Shown: in pieces, positions 25,821-38,108 of the stretch
Layout of the letters: every line of letters starts with the position of its first letter
How positions within the stretch are numbered: the stretch's first letter is position 1
DNA from: Dictyostelium discoideum
Lineage: Eukaryota
Assembly: GCA_000004695.1 (NCBI GenBank)
Contig: CM000151.3
Span: 2,112,001 to 2,176,000, forward strand
DNA length: 64,000 nt
Direction of reading: 5' to 3'
Notes under the pieces: model-generated
Told to the model about the DNA's origin: nothing
What the model saw: only the letters and a program-made list of their open reading frames with translations
Database searches by the model: none
Position numbers and translations under genes: made by a program

Positions 25821-28800
25821 ATGGCAACTACCAATGTAGTTGCAAGTTTATTGAACAATGGTGTTCATGGTGCAGGTAAATATTTAAATATTGGGCATTA
25901 AAAAATAAAAAATAAAAAATAAAAAATAAATTTCAAGATCGGAATCTAATTATTGTTTTTTTTTATTAATTTTATTCCAAATAATTTCAAAAACAAATGA
26001 ATTATTAATGATTTTATTATAATAATAATTTTCAAAAAGATGGTCCAAATGGTCTTCATGGTGGTAGTGGAGGATATGGTGGTGGACGTGGTGGTGATGT
26101 AAGTTTTTTTTTTTTTCTCCAAACCATTAATAAAAGATTTTAAAATTATAAATATGTATACTAAATTATATTTTTATTTTTTTTATTTTTTTTTTTTTTT
26201 AAAAAAAAATAAAGGGATCTAGAGGTGCAGATGGTAATCATGGTACACCATCAGGTAGTATTGAAGTTTTTTTGGCAACAGATGGAATTAAAAATATTTT
26301 AGTAGATTATACATTAGGACCAACACCAATTCATCATGAAATTAGAAAAGGAGTTGAACCATTGGAATTAGGTAATCCTCAAACACATCTCTATTTATCA
26401 TCTAGAGGAGGAGATGGTGGTTGCGGTGGTCGTGGTGGTGATGGTGGTAGTGGTGGTCCTGGTAGCGCAGGTATGAATGCCACAAGACATAGTTCAGGTA
26501 CAAATGGTGGACCTGGTGGTAATGGTGGTAGTGGTGGTAATGGTGGTAGTGGTGGATCGTCAGGTAATGGTAATGATATTACAATTAGGAATAATCAAGA
26601 AGATATGGATTTGTTAATGATTTTAAAACAAGGAGTTAGTGATACAGGTCCAGGTATACCTGGAAAGGGTGGTGATAAAGGTCATGGTGGTAGAGGTGGA
26701 CCAGGAGGACCAGGTGGTAACTCTTATAGTTGGAGTGAAAGTTATCAAGTTTCAGATGGTAGAGGTGGTACAACAACTCAATATAGACATCATACAAATC
26801 CAGGTGGTATTAGTAAGTTTAAATTTAAATTCTAACATTAAAAAAGGAAAAAAAAAAAAAAAAAAAAATACTAACGAAAAAAAAAAAAAAAAAAAATAGG
26901 TGGTCCAAGTGGACATAGTGGTAGTAATGGTATTGGTAAGTTTAAATTTAAATTTTATTATTGAAAAAAAAGGAAAAAAAAAAAAAAAAAAATTACTAAT
27001 TTTAAAAAAAAAAAAAAAAAAATACTAGATGGTAATAATGGTATTTCAGGTATACCAGGAAAATATTCAATTTTATTAAATACTCATGAATATGGAGTTG
27101 TTAGATATGAAGCACCATATGATTTACATGTTGAAAAGATAAGATATATAGATACGATTGGATATAATATAATTGAACCAGATTCAGATGTTAGATTAAG
27201 TGTTGATCATTTAAATGTTGGTGGTATGCCAACACCATCACATCAAAATATTATGGCATATGTTGGTGATAATGGTTGGGTTGAATGTCCAATAGAGAAT
27301 AGGGTTGCAATGCAAAGATGGATAGTAGAGAAAACCAAATCAAGTTTACCAAAGGAAATTATATTTCATATTAAAGATTATCGTCATGATATTAGAGTGT
27401 TACCAAGAAATCCATTTATTCAAAGTTCTACAATGGATCATCAATGTTTAGTGGATCGTATCAATCAAAGCTTTGCAAGAGTATCAGCTACCAAATCACC
27501 ATTTACCATTGAATATCCAGTTCAGTCATCGATTATCAAAGGTTTAGACTGTGTCACAATGACAGATGAGGCACCATTTACCTATAGTATTTGGAATAAA
27601 TCATTACTATCGATTGGTGTTGAGTCGAATGAGTTTGATAAAAAATCACCAAATCGTGTTTTATTTACAACTCTTAAAATTAATTTAAATACACGTGGTG
27701 GTAATACATCAATTAACGCAACCGATATTATAGTGAGAGATGTTAATGGTAAAATATTCAATAATCCAGAGAATGGATTATATTCAACCATTGAATTAAT
27801 TAATCCACAACAATTGAAATTTGCATCGGCCACAATGACATTTGTAAATCCTGATATTAAACCATACACTCGTGTTTTGGTTGAGTCTTCACTTTATTTA
27901 GGTCATATTAAAGACATGATCAATTCACCACAACCAATCCAATCTAGACCATTTGAAATTCAATTATCAGAGGGTTACTTATCATCATTATTCAATTGTG
28001 ACATTTTATTAGTGGTTAACAACCAATCGGAATACGATGAAATCACTCAATGGAAGTTATTAGCCCATCAATTAGGTTTAACATTAAATGTTTGGAATTC
28101 TGGTTTATATCAAGGTTTTATGTTAAATCATAGAAAAGCAGATGGTCGTACACTTCTTCAAGATTTTAGATCAAAAACAATCATTTATCTAGATAATAAC
28201 TATGTAAAGGATGAATTGTTATATCCAGCCTCTGAGTATATTAGATCAAAAGAATTTTTAAATGCTGCCTATCATCATGGTATTCATGTTTTAATGGTTG
28301 GTAAAAATTTCTCAATCGAGAATGAAATCTTCCCAATTAATACATTTGAAAGAGCAACTTTGGTTTATTATAAACAACATAAACAATTATTATACGCTTT
28401 AAAACATAGAATTCCTTCTGGCACTGGTTGTGGTCAAATTATACCACCACATATGGCTGTTGATGATAATGGTGATCTATCATTAAATCTATTAGTTGAT
28501 AAAAAGAATGAATATTTCATTGTAATCTTTAGACAATTAACCCTACTTTCAATCTTTAAAAAATCAAATTCACTCTACCCAATTAAAACAATTCATTTAG
28601 ATAGTTTTAATTTAACTTGTTTAACTCAACCACATTCTGAAACTAATGAAATCATTACAATTAATTTAGAATTTCAACATTTAGGTTTTAAAATTAATTT
28701 TTCACCATCAAAAGATAAAAAACTTAAAGAAAATTCAATTTCAAAAATTCAACAATTTTTTGAAATTTTACAACAAATTAAAACTTTATCACCAATTAAT

Positions 28801-31410
28801 AATAATAATAATAATAATAATATAAATATAAATGAAAATAATAATAATAATAATTTAAATGGTTTAAATGTTTCAGGTGGTGGTGAAAGAAAAAGTGTTG
28901 GTCCAATTTCAACAATAATTGAAGATGATAATGATATTTATGGTGGTTATTTGTATGTTAAATTTAAAGCAGAAGGATCATATAAAAAATATTATTTCAA
29001 TTTATTAACAAATGCAAAGGTATTACATCAACGTGAAGAAAAGAGTAAAAAAAAATCTAACAACAACAATGTTGCAATTAAAATATTAAATTTAAAGAGA
29101 TTTTCATTGACAAGAGGTAATCAATTTGGTACAGAGAAACAACATCATTTACAAACTTTCCAATTGGTTACACCAGAGACAACTTGGTACTTTAGAACTA
29201 GTTCAAATGATGAATATCAAGAATGGTTAAGTAGATTATCACCAATGTCAATTGAATATAATCTAACCTATTCTGAGCCATCGTCGGTGGTTAAGGACCA
29301 AATCATTTTAAAGAAAGAGGATGCAAGAGGTATACATTTATCACCAAGAACTCCAATTTTAGAAGAGAAGCATATACCAATCATTCAAGTTGTTGATAGA
29401 TTTGTCATTGGAAAACCAAAGGAAAAAGATTTAATAAAGTATGCAGAGAAATTATCGGAAAAGTTAAATTCACGTTTCCCAAATCAAAGAAATATTGTTG
29501 TCTATGAATTTAAACCAAAACAAACTGACGGCTGGAAGAGAATGACACTTGGTAATGTTGAAGTACATAGATCACTAGATAAAATTCAACCACATTTTGC
29601 AAAACTTAATATTGAACAAGATGTTTATATTCATAGTCCAACAATGATTCAAACACCTTCAACCATTTATCATTTCTTTAAAGTTTTAGATTTTAGAGAG
29701 AAATTATCCCTATTGGATAGTTTAGCAGAAAATTTATATTCAAATGATGAAACTTTGAATTTACTCTCAAATATTTCATCTCAATCTAAATTAGGTTTAT
29801 TACTCTTATCAATTTGTTCAGATCTTGCTGAAGAACAACATTGGTTTAGAGATGGTTCAAATTGGAGAGATAAATTATCAATTGATAAAATTAAATTAAA
29901 TTTATTAAAATTAAATATTTTAAAGAATTTCCAATTCAATTCTTATAATAATAGTAATTCAACAAATGTTACAACTAGATTATCTTTACCAATTTCAGAT
30001 CTTTTAATTGAAATTGGTGCTCACTTAAAGATAATTCTTTCAAATTTCCCTAAAAACTTTGCTGATAAAATTTGTTTACGTCGTAGAGCTAATGATGTTA
30101 CTGATGCTTCAAATTCGCTTTGGAATGATATTGTCATGATTCATCTATTTGGTAAAGAATTAAAAGATGATAAACCTATTGGTAAATCTAATCCAAATGA
30201 ATCTCAACTTTTAAAATCAATTAAAGAAACTGAATTGAAAAAACAAAAAGAATGGCAAAATCATTTATTCACTCAACATGGTTCAACTGGTAGTTGGGGT
30301 TACAATTGTACAAAAGCTGATCCTTCAAAAAATAAAAAAGAGAAACGTTGGATTAAAGGCGCCCATGTTATTTTAGCTTATAGAAAACCACCCTTCACTT
30401 CTGTAACAAGTGTTATCGATTGTGAAATCCTTTTACCAACCATTATGTCAAAGCAATCATTCCTTTCAAACTATGTTCCTCCAGTTCAAGGTAGTGCAAT
30501 CGTTGAAGAAAGAACTATTTTCGGTAATAATCAAGAGGCTCGTCAACAATTTATAAATCGTATTGCAACTGAGAAACTAGGTTTCGATATTAATAATACT
30601 GATAGATCATCACATTTAACAGTTTTAGAAAATTATTCAACAATATTTAATAATAATAATCAATCATTAATTCCAGTTGTTCAATTAGAAAAACCAACTG
30701 ATTCAATGACTCAAATTTTACCAAATTCTTATTCTTCAACCGAACCTCTTTCCTCAACCCCTTCTGATAATATTATTAGTATAGATTTAACAAAGAATTT
30801 CCAATCACCTCCAACTACAACTGAAAAACAATTTATTATTGGTGATGATTCAAATGATAATAATAATCTAATTAATAATTCTTTTGAACCTTCAATGGTA
30901 ATTCCATTATCACATTCAAATAATCAACAACAACAACAACAACAACAAGGAGTTAGTGAACCATCTTCGCCTGTGATCATTGACGGAGCTTCAAAACATC
31001 AATATCAAAATGCTGAAAATAATATTATTAACAACGACACCACTACCACTACCACCATTACAGAAACGACTACATCAACAGTTAAAATTGAGAAATTAGA
31101 GAAAAAAGAAGATTTATCAAACACTTCATCATCATCAACACCATCATCATCAACACCATCATCATCAACAATTTCTTCACCATTATTACAACCAATCATT
31201 ACAGTAAACGAGCAAAATATTGAAATTTCTTTAACAACAGCAACTACAATAACACCAGTAATTGAAGAACCATCACCTTTAACAACACCTTCATCTTTAT
31301 CATTATCAATCTCTTCACCATTTTTACCTGAAGAAAATAATAATAATAATAACATCAGTAATAATACAACAAAAGAAGATGATTTAGTAATTGAAGAACA
31401 CCACAATTAA
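25821..31410 (+). CDS. Large (about 1530 aa) protein: collagen-like G-X-Y/(GGX)n Gly-rich N-terminus, central PH domain, Ser/Thr-rich tail. 5 exons (25821..25875, 26040..26098, 26215..26812, 26900..26935, 27029..31410)
   Basis: Exons joined by GTAAAT/GTAAGT...AG introns with preserved phases. MATTNVVASLLNNGVHGAG|DGPNGLHGGSGGYGGGRGGD|GSRGADGNHGTPSG...GGDGGCGGRGGDGGSGGPGSAG...GPGIPGKGGDKGHGGRGGPGGPGG...|SGPSGHSGSNGIG|DGNNGISGIPGKYS...MPTPSH... PH domain near GYLYVKFKAEGSYKKYYFNLLTN...TWYFRTSSNDEYQEWLSRL. Confidence 0.7.
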
Positions 31411-32127: not shown

Positions 32128-32355
32128 CTATTTAATTCTCCTTTTATTATTATTATTTTTATTATTATTACTAAAATTGAAAGTTCCATAATAATTATCT
32201 AAAACTGTACCATATGGACCTGTATTACCAATACCAATACTTGGTGAATAAAAACTAGTTGGTTGAACATCGACTTGATTAAATGCAATTGTCAAATTAT
32301 CAATTTCATCCCATGCTAATGTGACACTATATTTTTTTTTTTATATAGTCGGTGA

Positions 32356-32395
<40 letters not shown>

Positions 32396-33019
32396 CTTAC
32401 TGTGGTTGAAATTGATCAAAAACGTTTGGAGAACCATATTTTTTAATCATTGCAATTTTTTCATCTCTTAATGGTTCTGGTAATGAATAAACCCAATCTG
32501 GGATAGTTTGATTTGGTGTGATATATTGAAAAGTATTATTTACAACCAAATCTGATAAATATTGTAAACATTGATTATTTTGTACTAACCACATACCATA
32601 TTGTGCTGAAATATCAATTGTTGTCATTTGAACTAAACAATTTTTACCTGCTTGATTTAGTAATGGGAAGATTTGTGAAATTCTAAAATTTATTATTATT
32701 ATTTTAAAATTAGTTTTTTTTTTTTAAAAAAAAAAAATTATTATTAATTATTATTTTTATTTTTATTTTTATTATATTACCCATTTTGAACTAATGGTAT
32801 TTGTTCTTGAACGAAATCAGTTAAATATAATGTAATATGTGGAATTGATTTTGAACCAAGGAAAACTTGATCATTTGGAGCATATTTATGTAACAAATTA
32901 TTATAATCAATTGCAACCTCATTAGTTGTTGGATCTAAATTGATATGAATATCCAATTCAACTGATGAAACAATTGCAACCAAACAAATAACAAAAAAAG
33001 CAATCAATTTGTGTGACAT
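32128..33019 (-). CDS. Secreted 2H-phosphoesterase-superfamily-like protein (signal peptide + two H-x-T-x motifs), 3 exons (33019..32781, 32682..32401, 32326..32128), about 239 aa
   Basis: MSHKLIAFFVICLVAIVSS signal peptide. Motif 1 PHITLYLT in exon 1. Motif 2 HVTLAW is created only by splicing CA|GTAAGT...ATATAG|TGTCAC (exon 2/3 junction). Phases are consistent across both introns. Confidence 0.6.
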
Positions 33020-33073
33020 TTTTCAGTTTTAAAAAATAAAAAAAATAAAAATTAAAAAAAATCCTTTTAATTT

Positions 33074-33104
<31 letters not shown>

Positions 33105-33570
33105 TTTTTTAAAAAAAAAAAGATTTATTTTTATTTTTAATATGAAATTTTGTGTATAAAAATAGAACCCTCAAAAATACACAAAATGATATCAAATTTA
33201 AAAAAATTAATTTTTGGTTTTTTTTTTTTTTTTTTTTTAGCAAACACAAAAAAAAAAAAAAAAATTTGATTAAATAAAGAAAGGCAATAGAAATTTCCAT
33301 TTGAAGCTGCACTAAGAAAATTTTATTTTGACGGTTTTAAAAATTTTATTTTAGAAGCTTTAAAACAAAAAAAAAAACCAAAAAAGAATATAGGATTTGG
33401 ATTCGATCACTTTCTTAAAATAATCTCAAAATAACTAATTAACTTTGTTTTTGGTCAAAAATAAAAAGATTCTCTTTGTATCTTTTTAACTGTAAGGTCA
33501 CATTTCTTTTTTTCGCAAAAAAATAAGATATTTTAATTTTTAAAAAAAATCCAGACATTTTATAATTTTT

Positions 33571-33617
<47 letters not shown>

Positions 33618-33732
33618 GCCGTCTATTTTTCGTAGACTGTAATTATTTATTTTTTTTTTTTTTTATTATTATTATTAATATTATTAATATTATTATTTGG
33701 TTTTTATTTTTTATTTTTTATTTTAAAAATAA

Positions 33733-33764
<32 letters not shown>

Positions 33765-33767
<3 letters not shown>

Positions 33768-34141
33768 AAAATAAATAATATTATAATTTTATTGATCATA
33801 GTATCAATATTTTTATTAAACTCAAAGGTTGATAGTAAATCATTACCACCAAGTTATAATAGAAATAATTTAAAATTACCAAATGAAAAAGATGTTCAAG
33901 ATATTTACAATAGATATAATCTTTTAAATACCGAACACTTTAGTTTAAAACAAAATCCATTTAAAAAAACAAATTTAAATGAAAACTTAAATACAAAATT
34001 ACAAACCTCCTATCCAGTTTCTTCAAATTGTTCAAATGCAATGAGTAATTTATTAAACCCAAATAATCCAGATTTTATGATGTGTAAGTTTTTATTATTT
34101 AAAAAAATAAAAATAAAAATAAAACAAATAATTGATATTAA

Positions 34142-34180
<39 letters not shown>

Positions 34181-36199
34181 GTATTTTATAGTGGTGTTAG
34201 TATAAATGAATTAGGTAATTTTGATTCATGTATTAGTTATGCATCAAATGTTTCACAGTATTGTTTATTTAATACTCAAATTGAAGAGATATTACCAATT
34301 TATATTGGTGTATGTTATCCAAGTGCAATTTATTGTTCACCAGAAGATGTATTGGGTTTAATGACACAATATTCGATTTTAATGCTTTTACAAGCAAATA
34401 TGACATTCAATGCAACAGAGGATTTACATTGTTACAATAGTACCTATCAAACAGTAAACATAGAAGCAACAGCAGGTACATGGGCAATGACGGCAGTTTG
34501 TGCTTTCATCGCTTTGAATATCATAATTGGTACTGTCATTGAATATATATTTGTCATTCAATTATCAAACTATAGAAAGAGATATGGTAACTTAATGAAT
34601 CATCCATATTCATTATTAAATCCAAAGAGTTATTTCGAACCAAATTCAACCAATTTACAAGGTGATAATCAATATAGTTATATTACAAATCAAAATGAAA
34701 ATGAATCAAGTGGTGGTGGTGGTGGTGGTGGTGCTACTACTGCAAGTGGTGGTGGTGGTACAATTGAAAATCTTGGTAATAGTGGTATAAATAATGATTT
34801 TGAACCACAATTTTATGATGGATTTTTTGAAAGAATATCAAATGTTAATGTTGAATCCAATTTATTTATAAAGTATTTCACATGTTGGTCATTAATAAAG
34901 AATTTCAATTCATTAGCCTATGGAAAGAGTGAAAAACGTTATTTCAATTCATTGGATGGTATTAGAACTTTATCAACATGTTGGGTTATTTTAGGTCATT
35001 CATTACTATTTGGTGCATCAGGATATGGTTATGATAATTTAGCATACGTAGCAAGTGGAACTACATTACAAACCTTTGCAGCTCAAGCCATTTTCGGTGG
35101 TGAATTTGCTGTTGATACATTCTTTATGTTAAGTGGTTTCTTGGTTTCTTTCTCTGTATTGAATCAGTTAAGTAAACGTAATAGTATCTATGGGTCAATT
35201 AAATTTTGGGTTGCTTATGTAGTTCATAGATTCGTTAGATTAAGTCCGTTATATTACTTTATGATATTCTTTTCAATGTGGGTTGCACCAATGATTGGCA
35301 GTGGTCCAATTTTCTATCAATATAGTCAATTCACAAATTTGGGTTGTTCAAGTAGTTGGTGGACAAACTTTTTATACTTTAATAATCTTTACTCGACATT
35401 GGCCACCGAATGTTATGCTGTATCTTGGTATTTAGCAAATGATATGCAATTCTTTTTGTTGACACCTTTTATTTTGATACTATTCAGAAAATGGAAATTG
35501 GGTGGTTGGTTATTAACTTTATCACTTATTTTCGCTTCAGTCATTGGTACCACAATCGTCGCCTACAAATACCAATTGGAAACCTTCTTTGATATTTTCT
35601 CAGTAGCCGATGAAACCAATACCAATCCTTTCATAACAGATATCTATCAAAAACCATGGAATAGAATTGGTCCTTATTTAGTTGGTGTTTTGGTTTCTTT
35701 TATTTATACTGCACCAAGATTATCAAAAAGAGTTAGATTTATCTATTATCGTAGAATTACACGTTATATCTTATATTGTATCGCATTCTTTGTAACATTT
35801 TTCCTAGTTTATTGTCCATACACTTTTTATCAAAATGCTTGGAATTATTCTCAAAAGGCAGTGTTCTCTGGTTTCGGTCATACAAGTTTTGTTGTGGGTC
35901 TTGCTATCTTTATGATTGGTACTTTCTTTGGTTATGGTGGTATCGTTAAATGGTTCTTGGAATTGGGTATTTTCAAATTCTTTTCAAAGTTAACCTATTC
36001 AAGTTATCTTGTTCATCCATTGGTAATCATGTTTAGAATCTATTCAATGACAAATTTCTTACATTATTCTGTAACTGAATTCATTGTTTATTATGCTGGA
36101 AATATTGCAACCACTTTTGCTGCTGCTTTTGTAATTCATCTTTTAATTGAAAAGCCATTTGTCAATTTAGAAAGATTAATTTTCTCAAGTTCAAGTTAA
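33765..36199 (+). CDS. NRF-domain + acyltransferase-3 family multi-pass membrane protein; 2 exons (33765..34083, 34182..36199)
   Basis: Signal peptide. Cys-rich NRF-type N-terminal domain spanning the intron (MM-LFYSGVSINELGNFDSCISYASNVSQYCLF...CYPSAIYC). Then about 10 hydrophobic helices (LDGIRTLSTCWVILGHS..., acyl_transf_3-like). GTAAGT...ATAG intron, phase 1. Confidence 0.8.
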
Positions 36200-36503: not shown

Positions 36504-38108
36504 ATGAATTTTAAAAGGTTGATTACAACATCTTTTACAAATCAAATAAAAAATATGAAATTTAAAAAAACAATTAGTTTTAAACCATTTGATATTAATA
36601 ATCGAATTATTTATGATAAAGAACCTACAATAGTTTTTAAAGATCAAAAATCATGTTTGTTAAAAGATACAATTTCAACAACACTTGAAGATGGTAGTAA
36701 GGAATTAAAAATAAAAATTGGGAGATTTACACCAGGTTTAGATTCAAATAATAATTATATTTCATCAGATATCTTTGAAATTAATATTAACAATTATTCA
36801 AATAAAATTGATTTATGTTTGGTAAGTTTAAAATTTTATATATACATATATTTTATTTAAACAAATAAACAAACAATTTAGCAATACAATTATTGTTAAC
36901 AATCAAAACAATCAAAAAAAAATTACAATCAAATAATAAACAAAACATTAAAAAAACAATATATAACAAATCCATCCAAACAATCTATCAAGTAAATATT
37001 GTTTATTTTTTTTTTTTTTTTAGTTTACACTTTTGATTTGTTTTTTTTTGTTTGGTTGGTTATTCATCTTTTTTATTAAAGATTATTAATAAATTTTATA
37101 TTAGAATGGTAAAAATCCAACATTTTTAAGAAGAAAAGGAAAAATACCGACTAAAGTTAAAAATTGGGAACAATTATTAGGAGAACAATTGGAAATTAGA
37201 AAATCAGTCACTTTGGAAGATGGTGATATAATATCTTTTTTAGGTTTAAATGGTACAACTTCTTCAATACAATTTACAATTGAAGAAGATAATGAAAATG
37301 AAAAAGAAAAAGAAAAAGAAATGGAACTTGATAACGATAATACAAATACAGAATCAATTCCACCAATAACATCAAAATCAACATCAACATCAACATCACT
37401 TATAGATACAAATAAAATTCAATTGAAAAAACATTTTGAAGATCCAAATTCAAAGAATGTAGGTCTTTCAGCATTAGTTTATTTTTGTAATAAACCAGAA
37501 TCATTTCTAGATGTTGTTTTATATTATGATGATAAAACAGTTGCGGTACTTGATAAATATCCAAAAGCAAAACATCATTATTTAGTAATACCAAGAGTTG
37601 AAATCAATACATTGGATGAATTAACACCTTCTTTCATTCCAATGTTAGAACATATGTATAATGTTGCTGATGCAATTATAAATGAAATAATTTCAAAAGA
37701 TAATGATGACGATAATTTAAAAAAATCAGATTTCAAATTAGGTTTTCATGCAATACCATCAATGAAAAGACTTCATCTTCATATTATCTCAAATGACTAT
37801 AATACTAAATATTTAAAAAATAATAAACACTGGAATTCTTTTACTACTGAATTTTATATTCCTTTTGATAAAATCTTAAATGAATTAAAATCAAATGGTA
37901 AAGTTAAAGTAAGTATAAAAAAAAAAATAAAAAAAAATAAAAAAAAACTAATTCACTAAACAAATTATTATTTTAGATTGATCAAGTAAAATATAATTCA
38001 ATATTAAGTCAAATAAAAAAATGTCCAATTTGTAAAGAAGAAAATAAAAATTTAGAAAATTTAAAAGACCATTATAAAAAATGTTTAGAAAAATTTAAAT
38101 CTAAATAA
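36504..38108 (+). CDS. aptx: Aprataxin-like: FHA-like domain + HIT domain + C-terminal C2H2-type zinc finger; 3 exons (36504..36821, 37105..37908, 37977..38108)
   Basis: Exon 1/2 FHA-like (...NGKNPTFLRRKGKIPTKVKNWEQLLGEQLEIRKSVTLEDGDIISFLG). HIT motif HLHIISNDY with upstream KAKHHYLVIPR. Exon 3 IDQVKYNSILSQIKKCPICKEENKNLENLKDHYKKCLEKFKSK*. Introns GTAAGT...TTAG, phase 0. Confidence 0.85.

Follow-up and report, generated by a model that had tools for sequence, protein, structure and literature searches.

We analysed a window of 64,000 nucleotides of Dictyostelium discoideum DNA (assembly GCA_000004695.1, contig CM000151.3, positions 2,112,001 to 2,176,000 of the forward strand; coordinates below are those of the window) and focused on DDB_G0272767, a gene that encodes a protein of the 2H phosphoesterase type with a hydrophobic N-terminus. 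When the minus strand is read as the reverse complement and the three exons between 33019 and 32128 are joined, the gene yields 720 nt of coding sequence and a product of 239 amino acids that starts with MSHKLIAFFVICLVAIVSSVELDIH. This product is 100% identical to the protein of strain AX4 (EAL71021.1 / XP_644954.1 / UniProt Q86L42), which is annotated as 'hypothetical protein', and the gene model is therefore not new. The protein is listed in the table 'Continuous expression and Stable proteomes' of a whole-cell life-cycle proteome with intensities of ~6e6-1.1e7, roughly flat over all ten columns; DDB_G0272767 is thus a real gene that is expressed as protein. The species is represented by only one cluster among the matches of our homology searches.

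Gene structure and neighbourhood of DDB_G0272767

Exon 1 encodes MSHKLIAFFVICLVAIVSS followed by VELD, as well as the first motif, PHITLYLT, at residues 60-67. The initial annotation had proposed this gene model, with the second motif, HVTLAW, put together across the exon 2/3 junction, and every sequence detail agreed with the spliced product. The codon for His174 is made of CA, the last two nucleotides of exon 2, and T, the first of exon 3, after which VTLAW follows; if intron 2 is retained, the frame runs ..QPQ into a stop. The earlier statement that the motif exists only after splicing is true as regards the split codon but ordinary: the intron is a phase-2 intron, conserved across dictyostelids, and its position is not known to have any functional significance. 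Both introns were found at the same positions and in the same phases in D. purpureum, Tieghemostelium lacteum and Cavenderia fasciculata when the proteins of these species were mapped onto their genomic DNA, with the position of intron 1 at the end of exon 1 conserved in four dictyostelid genera and intron 2 splitting the same His codon (CA/gt..ag/T) in all four. In transcriptome-derived homologues (TRINITY and MMETSP entries) the motif Q-P-H-V/I-T is present as a contiguous sequence. We considered whether an intron placed within the codon of a catalytic histidine could have a regulatory meaning and rejected this idea in favour of an old, conserved phase-2 intron. Two variable features of the gene were also observed. 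The Asn/Lys-rich C-terminal tail (32128-32170) is not of constant length, so that D. discoideum strains and their sibling species have proteins of 233-246 aa (P0001, P0061-P0068), and a second isolate of D. discoideum has several substitutions relative to AX4, among them G80E, in the codon of the exon 1/2 junction, and L112S.

Table 1. Features of DDB_G0272767 in window coordinates
Feature	Position	Strand	Remarks
DDB_G0272767, whole coding region	32128..33019	-	3 exons, 2 introns, 239 aa; translation identical to EAL71021.1 / Q86L42
Exon 1	32781..33019	-	ATG at 33019; codons 1-79 plus 2 nt of codon 80
Intron 1	32683..32780	-	98 nt, GT..AG, phase 2
Exon 2	32401..32682	-	holds Cys95, Cys118, the N128-N-T sequon, P141-x-W143 and the invariant KYGSPNV loop
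Intron 2	32327..32400	-	74 nt, GTAAGT..ATATAG, phase 2; splits the His174 codon
Exon 3	32128..32326	-	TAA stop at 32128-32130; low-complexity Asn/Lys tail at the end
Predicted signal peptide, residues 1-19	32963..33019	-	MSHK / LIAFFVICLVAIV / SS
First catalytic motif PHITLYLT (His61, Thr63)	32819..32842	-	H61 invariant, T63 is T/S in 52/52
Second catalytic motif HVTLAW	32311..32402, including intron 2	-	CA at 32402-32401, T at 32326, VTLAW at 32325-32311

Between the start of the gene and a divergent open reading frame (ORF) on the plus strand lie 745 bp of AT-rich intergenic DNA (33020-33764) in which long homopolymer runs occur; the ORF (33765..34148) has a signal-peptide-like start and is probably the first exon of an acyltransferase-3 gene at 34352..36199 (PF01757, E 2.9e-23). 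Two more neighbours on the plus strand are apparently unrelated, namely an intronless ORF of 1394 aa with a PH domain and long Asn/Thr/Ser-rich tails (27226-31410) and a HIT/DcpS_C-domain protein with the aprataxin-like HxHxH motif HLHIISND (37189-37959). No tRNA gene or Rfam family was found in the window.

A 2H fold with two conserved H-x-T/S motifs

An AlphaFold2 model, built from an alignment of 52 family sequences, had a mean predicted local distance difference test score (pLDDT) of 93.2, falling to a mean of 59 for residues 1-10 and to values below 50 in the C-terminal tail. The model shows the bilobed alpha+beta 2H fold with the motifs on the central strands: the first strand starts at residue 19, His61 opens the strand of residues 61-70 and His174 opens that of residues 174-179, and each half of the domain carries one H-x-T/S motif, PHITLY (H61, T63) in the first and PHVTLA (H174, T176) in the second. 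Both histidines are invariant in the alignment, the positions of T63 and T176 are occupied by T or S in all 52 sequences, and H25, L64, P141, W143, G163, S164, P165, V167 and G213 are further invariant columns. In the larger set of 218 family sequences that cover the columns of the dyad, it is intact in all but one (217/218). As the dyad is kept across very distant eukaryotes, we take it as a signature of selection on catalysis, and the conservation pattern, judged from these alignments, is that of an active enzyme.

The query scored 24.3 bits against Pfam PF06299 (DUF1045), exactly the gathering cut-off, with an alignment restricted to profile positions 36-114 of 159, and it remained below the cut-offs of the LigT/ThpR profiles PF02834 (13.6 vs 27 bits) and PF13563 (11.8 vs 23.3 bits), of Acb1 (PF23474; 16.5 vs 27 bits, with only residues 157-184 aligned) and of NCBIfam TIGR03223 (17.5 vs 248.95 bits). 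Family members match profiles of the 2H clan significantly: at E<=1e-3, 28 of the 52 match PF13563, 27 PF06299, 9 PF02834, 6 Acb1 and 1 the CPDase profile of Pfam, and some relatives reach the gathering score of a LigT/ThpR profile. Pfam has no dedicated family for these proteins, whose members scatter over PF13563, PF06299, PF02834 and Acb1. A sequence search of the PDB with the single protein returned only noise (antibodies, a beta-glucosidase) and a search with the family profile returned only weak LigT matches (E ~5e-3), from which it follows that no family member has a solved structure. When structures were compared, the closest matches were intracellular enzymes, with those to Acb1 and to the cGAMP phosphodiesterase weaker than those to the LigT/CPDase group. 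We are practically certain that DDB_G0272767 encodes a 2H-fold protein, and the assignment made in the initial annotation holds; identity to the annotated protein, the 60 homologues of the first search and the two invariant histidines set it apart from a chance pair of motifs.

The known 2H enzymes differ from this protein in several respects. The LigT/ThpR RNA 2',3'-cyclic phosphodiesterases (Deinococcus drCPDase, 5h7f; E. coli, 4qak; Pyrococcus PH0099, 1vgj; B. subtilis YjcG, 2d4g) are cytoplasmic proteins of ~170-190 aa that lack a signal peptide, whereas proteins of the present family have in addition a signal peptide or anchor, two covarying cysteines, sequons, the invariant KYGSPNV loop, a P-x-W motif and the near-invariant H25. 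The bacterial DUF1045 proteins (PF06299; Atu0111, 2fsq), the nearest family by sequence, are cytoplasmic too and are encoded by accessory genes of carbon-phosphorus (C-P) lyase (phn) operons, while DDB_G0272767 has neither an operon nor a phosphonate context; its neighbours code for the PH-domain, acyltransferase-3 and HIT proteins and provide no genomic link to C-P lyase genes. Finally, the plant and fungal CPDases (Arabidopsis At4g18930, 1fsi) and vertebrate CNPase, which are cytoplasmic or sit on the cytosolic side of membranes, share only 9-12% identity with it.

The third histidine, H25, lies in an L-D-I-H motif on the first beta strand (32945-32947, minus strand); it is invariant in the 52 sequences and present in 212/218, whereas a His is missing here from the 2H enzymes of the LigT type. 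It may act as a third active-site residue, a pH sensor or a metal ligand. P0177, the only member in which the dyad is lost, lacks His61 and Thr176 and has lost H25 as well.

The initial homology search returned 60 homologues at E<=1e-3, and a profile search of 1.84 billion representatives returned 1513 proteins at the same threshold, 207 of them at E<=1e-30. The named members come from dictyostelids, Pelomyxa, Mastigamoeba, Balamuthia, Naegleria, Willaertia, Andalucia, Carpediemonas (where the protein is annotated 'signal peptide protein'), the diatom Fragilaria, a colponemid and marine protist transcriptomes, with no animal, fungal or land-plant names among the matches listed. By these matches the family is widespread in free-living protists. 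Some of the existing annotations of its members are peculiar: the Balamuthia mandrillaris orthologue (P0087) is named 'RWD domain-containing protein', which looks like an annotation problem; the Cavenderia fasciculata model (P0006; L004 2423-2878) has two added 3' exons with atypical splice sites (GTGAAT..AAG), likely another such problem; and the Heterostelium album model (P0007) carries a multi-pass N-terminal extension of 150 aa that may be a merged neighbouring gene.

Predicted signal peptides, features of a probable extracytoplasmic location and fusion to RNase T2

We judged the N-terminus by hydropathy, by the n, h and c regions of signal peptides and by the -3/-1 rule. The query has a single hydrophobic segment, residues 5-17, with a 13-residue Kyte-Doolittle mean of 3.49 and without amphipathic, Arg-rich character; the N-terminus reads MSHK, followed by LIAFFVICLVAIV and by SS before the next V, and the small residues V-S-S lead into the first strand of the domain; by these heuristics it is a signal peptide. 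The same feature extends to the relatives. A total of 148 family sequences have a Met start and both motifs, and 115 of them begin with a hydrophobic signal or anchor (98 signal-like, 17 with an upstream membrane anchor), the other 33 being mostly fragments or borderline cases. The signal peptide reported in the initial annotation is thus borne out, within the reach of such heuristics, by the query itself and by its family.

The remainder of the protein has features expected of an oxidising, glycosylating environment. C95 and C118 are the only cysteines of the mature protein, and across the 52 sequences both are present in 47, both are absent in 5 and in none does one occur without the other; such joint presence or absence is what one would expect if the two form a disulfide. 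At residue 128 there is an N-x-T sequon, which 31/52 retain. From these patterns the DDB_G0272767 protein probably contains a Cys95-Cys118 disulfide and N-glycans. The domains to which relatives are fused are all extracytoplasmic, comprising a sialidase FRIP motif, a sulfatase, PSI-like Cys-rich modules, C-terminal membrane anchors and the extracellular N-terminus of a protein with seven transmembrane segments (7TM). All of this sequence evidence considered, we hold it very likely that the protein of D. discoideum is extracytoplasmic.

Several of these architectures deserve description on their own. In four metagenome proteins (P0072, P0075, P0079 and P0220) the 2H domain is followed by a Cys-rich PSI-like module, GGCVWCD..FCT, after which P0072 has the sialidase FRIP motif and P0220 a PAN-like segment and an arylsulfatase with the C-x-P-x-R signature; these modules were called by eye and not by Pfam. 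P0178 of Mastigamoeba balamuthi (EukProt EP00727_P008968) consists of a signal peptide, a 2H domain with both motifs and a multi-pass domain that matches Pfam Dicty_CAR (E 1.8e-9). To judge by this arrangement, its 2H domain would be the ectodomain of a receptor resembling G-protein-coupled receptors and might sense extracellular nucleotides.

The fusion partner with the most direct bearing on function is RNase T2. Already in the first homology search one protein, P0028, carried Pfam domains of both 2H and RNase T2, and its contig reads openly through the 2H part into the RNase T2 part with no stop codon and with a short intron inside the latter. In at least 8 cluster representatives, drawn from four data sources, the 2H domain precedes an entire RNase T2 domain, with both CAS motifs wherever the sequence is complete. 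P0192/P0218, P0247, P0163, P0263, P0264, P0265 and P0319 are further fusions with the same order and a conserved linker, and three fusions that we compared pairwise are 50-58% identical over both domains. At locus L005, exons upstream supply a signal peptide and the first motif in the form DPHVTLYLTDF, giving the order signal peptide, 2H, RNase T2.

The fusion loci (L001 1-2072; L005 9100-12400; L007 1-6891) show conserved synteny with genes for Bmt2, a TPR protein, an HHH_2 protein and a USP47-like UCH, and their contigs are eukaryotic, compact and dense in genes, with a GC content of 49-64%; one of these contigs belongs to NCBI assembly GCA_040384145.1. When we searched with the RNase T2 moiety, the nearest sequences were, besides more fusions, the S-like RNases of green algae and plants. 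Since this moiety is closest to the RNases of Chlamydomonas, Pyramimonas and plants, the fusion-bearing loci probably come from one lineage of green picoalgae.

The 2H superfamily and its chemistry are already known, as is the gene in its guise of hypothetical protein. A literature search found no main text that gives the identifier DDB_G0272767 and no paper that deals with this 2H family, with 2H enzymes that are secreted or with fusions between LigT and RNase T2. The extracytoplasmic, protist-wide 2H clade, the conserved features that mark it (the KYGSPNV loop, the paired cysteines and the extra His of strand 1) and its fusion to RNase T2 appear to be undescribed.

A candidate enzyme for the step after RNase T2

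RNase T2 enzymes, which are nearly universal in lysosomes, vacuoles and secretions, cleave RNA to products with 2',3'-cyclic phosphates and open these only slowly. For a 2H domain fused to such an enzyme the simplest reading is that it catalyses the second step, the opening of the cyclic phosphate. In line with this reading, the phn operons that contain DUF1045 lack phnP, the gene of the ribose 1,2-cyclic phosphate diesterase. Judged from the fusion and the family relationships, 2',3'-cyclic phosphates are the most plausible class of substrate, and to this extent the suggestion of the initial annotation is retained.

We propose that the DDB_G0272767 protein would enter the endomembrane system co-translationally by means of a cleavable N-terminal signal peptide and would reach the endolysosome or phagolysosome, the medium, or both. 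In these surroundings the two motifs, with His61/Thr63 and His174/Thr176, would serve to hydrolyse ribose 2',3'-cyclic phosphates, both 2',3'-cyclic nucleoside monophosphates (2',3'-cNMPs) and oligonucleotides with cyclic phosphate (>p) ends, that a presumed RNase T2 partner in Dictyostelium would release from the RNA of prey or from autophagic RNA. This would yield 2'- or 3'-nucleoside monophosphates, according to which ester bond is cut, a regiochemistry that we can only infer, and acid phosphatases would then turn them into nucleosides and phosphate. A secretory-pathway 2H enzyme that hydrolyses RNase T2-derived 2',3'-cyclic phosphates outside the cytoplasm is the account that we favour by a modest degree.

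Precedents for such a division of labour exist. In E. coli, the extracytoplasmic T2-family RNase I of the periplasm makes 2',3'-cNMPs, which the co-located phosphodiesterase CpdB opens for the salvage of phosphate and nucleoside. The logic is the one proposed here, but CpdB has a metallophosphoesterase / 5'-nucleotidase fold that is unrelated to 2H, and we saw no homology. Tomato work by Abel and colleagues in 2000 is said to have inferred a partner cyclic nucleotide phosphodiesterase. In plants, a vacuolar or extracellular cyclic nucleotide phosphodiesterase acting after RNase T2 (RNase LE / RNS2) has been postulated but none described, and 2H proteins have been named as candidates (2025 Arabidopsis study, PMC12369478). 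The role proposed for that plant enzyme is the same as ours; no land plant is represented among the named matches of our family.

Several points weigh against this proposal. The signal peptide was called by heuristics only, and the supplements that could be searched, those of a Mycobacterium-vacuole proteome and of a paper on a secreted cell-density factor (DPF), do not list the protein. The RNase T2 fusions, to judge by their loci, are all syntenic and belong to one lineage, which makes them one event kept over considerable divergence and not repeated independent fusion. No Dictyostelium RNase T2 was retrieved by the search with the RNase T2 moiety, and for RNase DdI, which we take to be the RNase T2 of D. 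discoideum, neither the search nor the literature gave confirmation. Moreover, the substrates of 2H enzymes are varied (2'-5'-linked oligoadenylates, cGAMP, ADP-ribose 1'',2''-cyclic phosphate, the 3' ends of U6), and sequence alone cannot choose among them.

This variety leads to the alternative that the protein, as a 2H enzyme that is secreted or lysosomal, serves to degrade signalling nucleotides, be they cyclic di- or oligonucleotides of bacterial prey, the amoeba's own morphogen cyclic di-GMP or 2'-5'-linked oligoadenylates, with Acb1, the poxvirus cGAMP phosphodiesterase, AKAP7 and ns2 as intracellular parallels. Acb1 and the poxvirus enzyme have the same fold, and one relative is fused to a receptor, yet the matches to these two are the weaker ones in structure, the Acb1 score is below the cut-off in Pfam, the enzyme actually found as fusion partner makes 2',3'-cyclic phosphates from RNA, and the family is broadly distributed in protists with no known cyclic-dinucleotide signalling; we consider this alternative unlikely. 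Slightly less likely still is another ribose cyclic phosphate as substrate, either the ADP-ribose 1'',2''-cyclic phosphate of the plant and yeast CPDases or the 5-phosphoribosyl 1,2-cyclic phosphate inferred for DUF1045. These compounds arise in cytosolic or nuclear tRNA splicing or from bacterial C-P lyase, and neither source is to be expected outside the cytoplasm of a protist; the TIGR03223 score lies far below its cut-off, and the RNase T2 fusion points to 2',3'-cyclic phosphates derived from RNA.

It is also conceivable that the hydrophobic N-terminus is no secretion signal but mitochondrial, a membrane tail or the result of a wrong start codon, and that the protein is an ordinary intracellular LigT-like RNA 2',3'-cyclic phosphodiesterase, as the intracellular nature of the closest structures and a signal judged by hydropathy would allow. 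The hydrophobic start is, however, family-wide and lacks the amphipathic, Arg-rich character noted above, and it is accompanied by paired cysteines, conserved sequons and exclusively extracytoplasmic fusion partners, all of which makes this improbable. More improbable again is an extracellular domain without catalytic function, which would keep the 2H fold for binding nucleotides or for a structural role: some 2H domains were initially reported to bind nucleotides, as AKAP18 with AMP (2vfk) illustrates, P0177 has lost His61 and Thr176 and the Mastigamoeba receptor fusion could be a sensor, but the two H-x-T/S motifs are kept in the rest of the 218 sequences, and the receptor-fused copy also keeps both.

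The extracellular cAMP link hinted at in the initial annotation, taken to mean that the protein acts on 3',5'-cAMP or modulates it in the relay of the social amoeba, can be set aside almost completely. In its favour are the signal peptide, the use of extracellular cAMP as a signal by this organism and a relative fused to a 7TM domain that matches the slime mold cAMP receptor family of Pfam; against it, the 2H structural matches include no 3',5'-cNMP diesterase, the Pfam scan found no cAMP phosphodiesterase family even at E<=10, orthologues occur in many non-social protists (Naegleria, Willaertia, Carpediemonas, Pelomyxa, Balamuthia, Andalucia, a diatom) and the flat intensities of the proteome table are not aggregation-specific. 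The extracellular cAMP diesterase of Dictyostelium is PdsA, a class II enzyme.

Returning to a 2H enzyme that acts after RNase T2, the proposal can be widened, though here we speak tentatively and with less conviction than for the D. discoideum protein itself: in Dictyostelium, DDB_G0272767 may represent a family of 2',3'-cyclic phosphodiesterases, lysosomal or secreted, that extends across eukaryotes and has so far gone unrecognised. It would then be the long-postulated and never cloned accessory enzyme that completes the digestion of RNA by RNase T2 outside the cytoplasm, and in some lineages the domain would form the ectodomain of a 7TM receptor that could sense breakdown products of prey RNA.

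A signal-peptide-bearing 2H family that is fused to RNase T2 in some lineages is a concrete candidate for the missing step after RNase T2, and the presence of a member in Dictyostelium makes it genetically tractable. What we offer is a testable functional prediction on an old gap in RNA salvage and not a categorically new mechanism. If it is true, it would extend the 2H superfamily, described until now from enzymes inside cells, to extracytoplasmic compartments, with relevance for the recycling of prey RNA by phagotrophs and possibly for the removal of 2',3'-cNMP signals.

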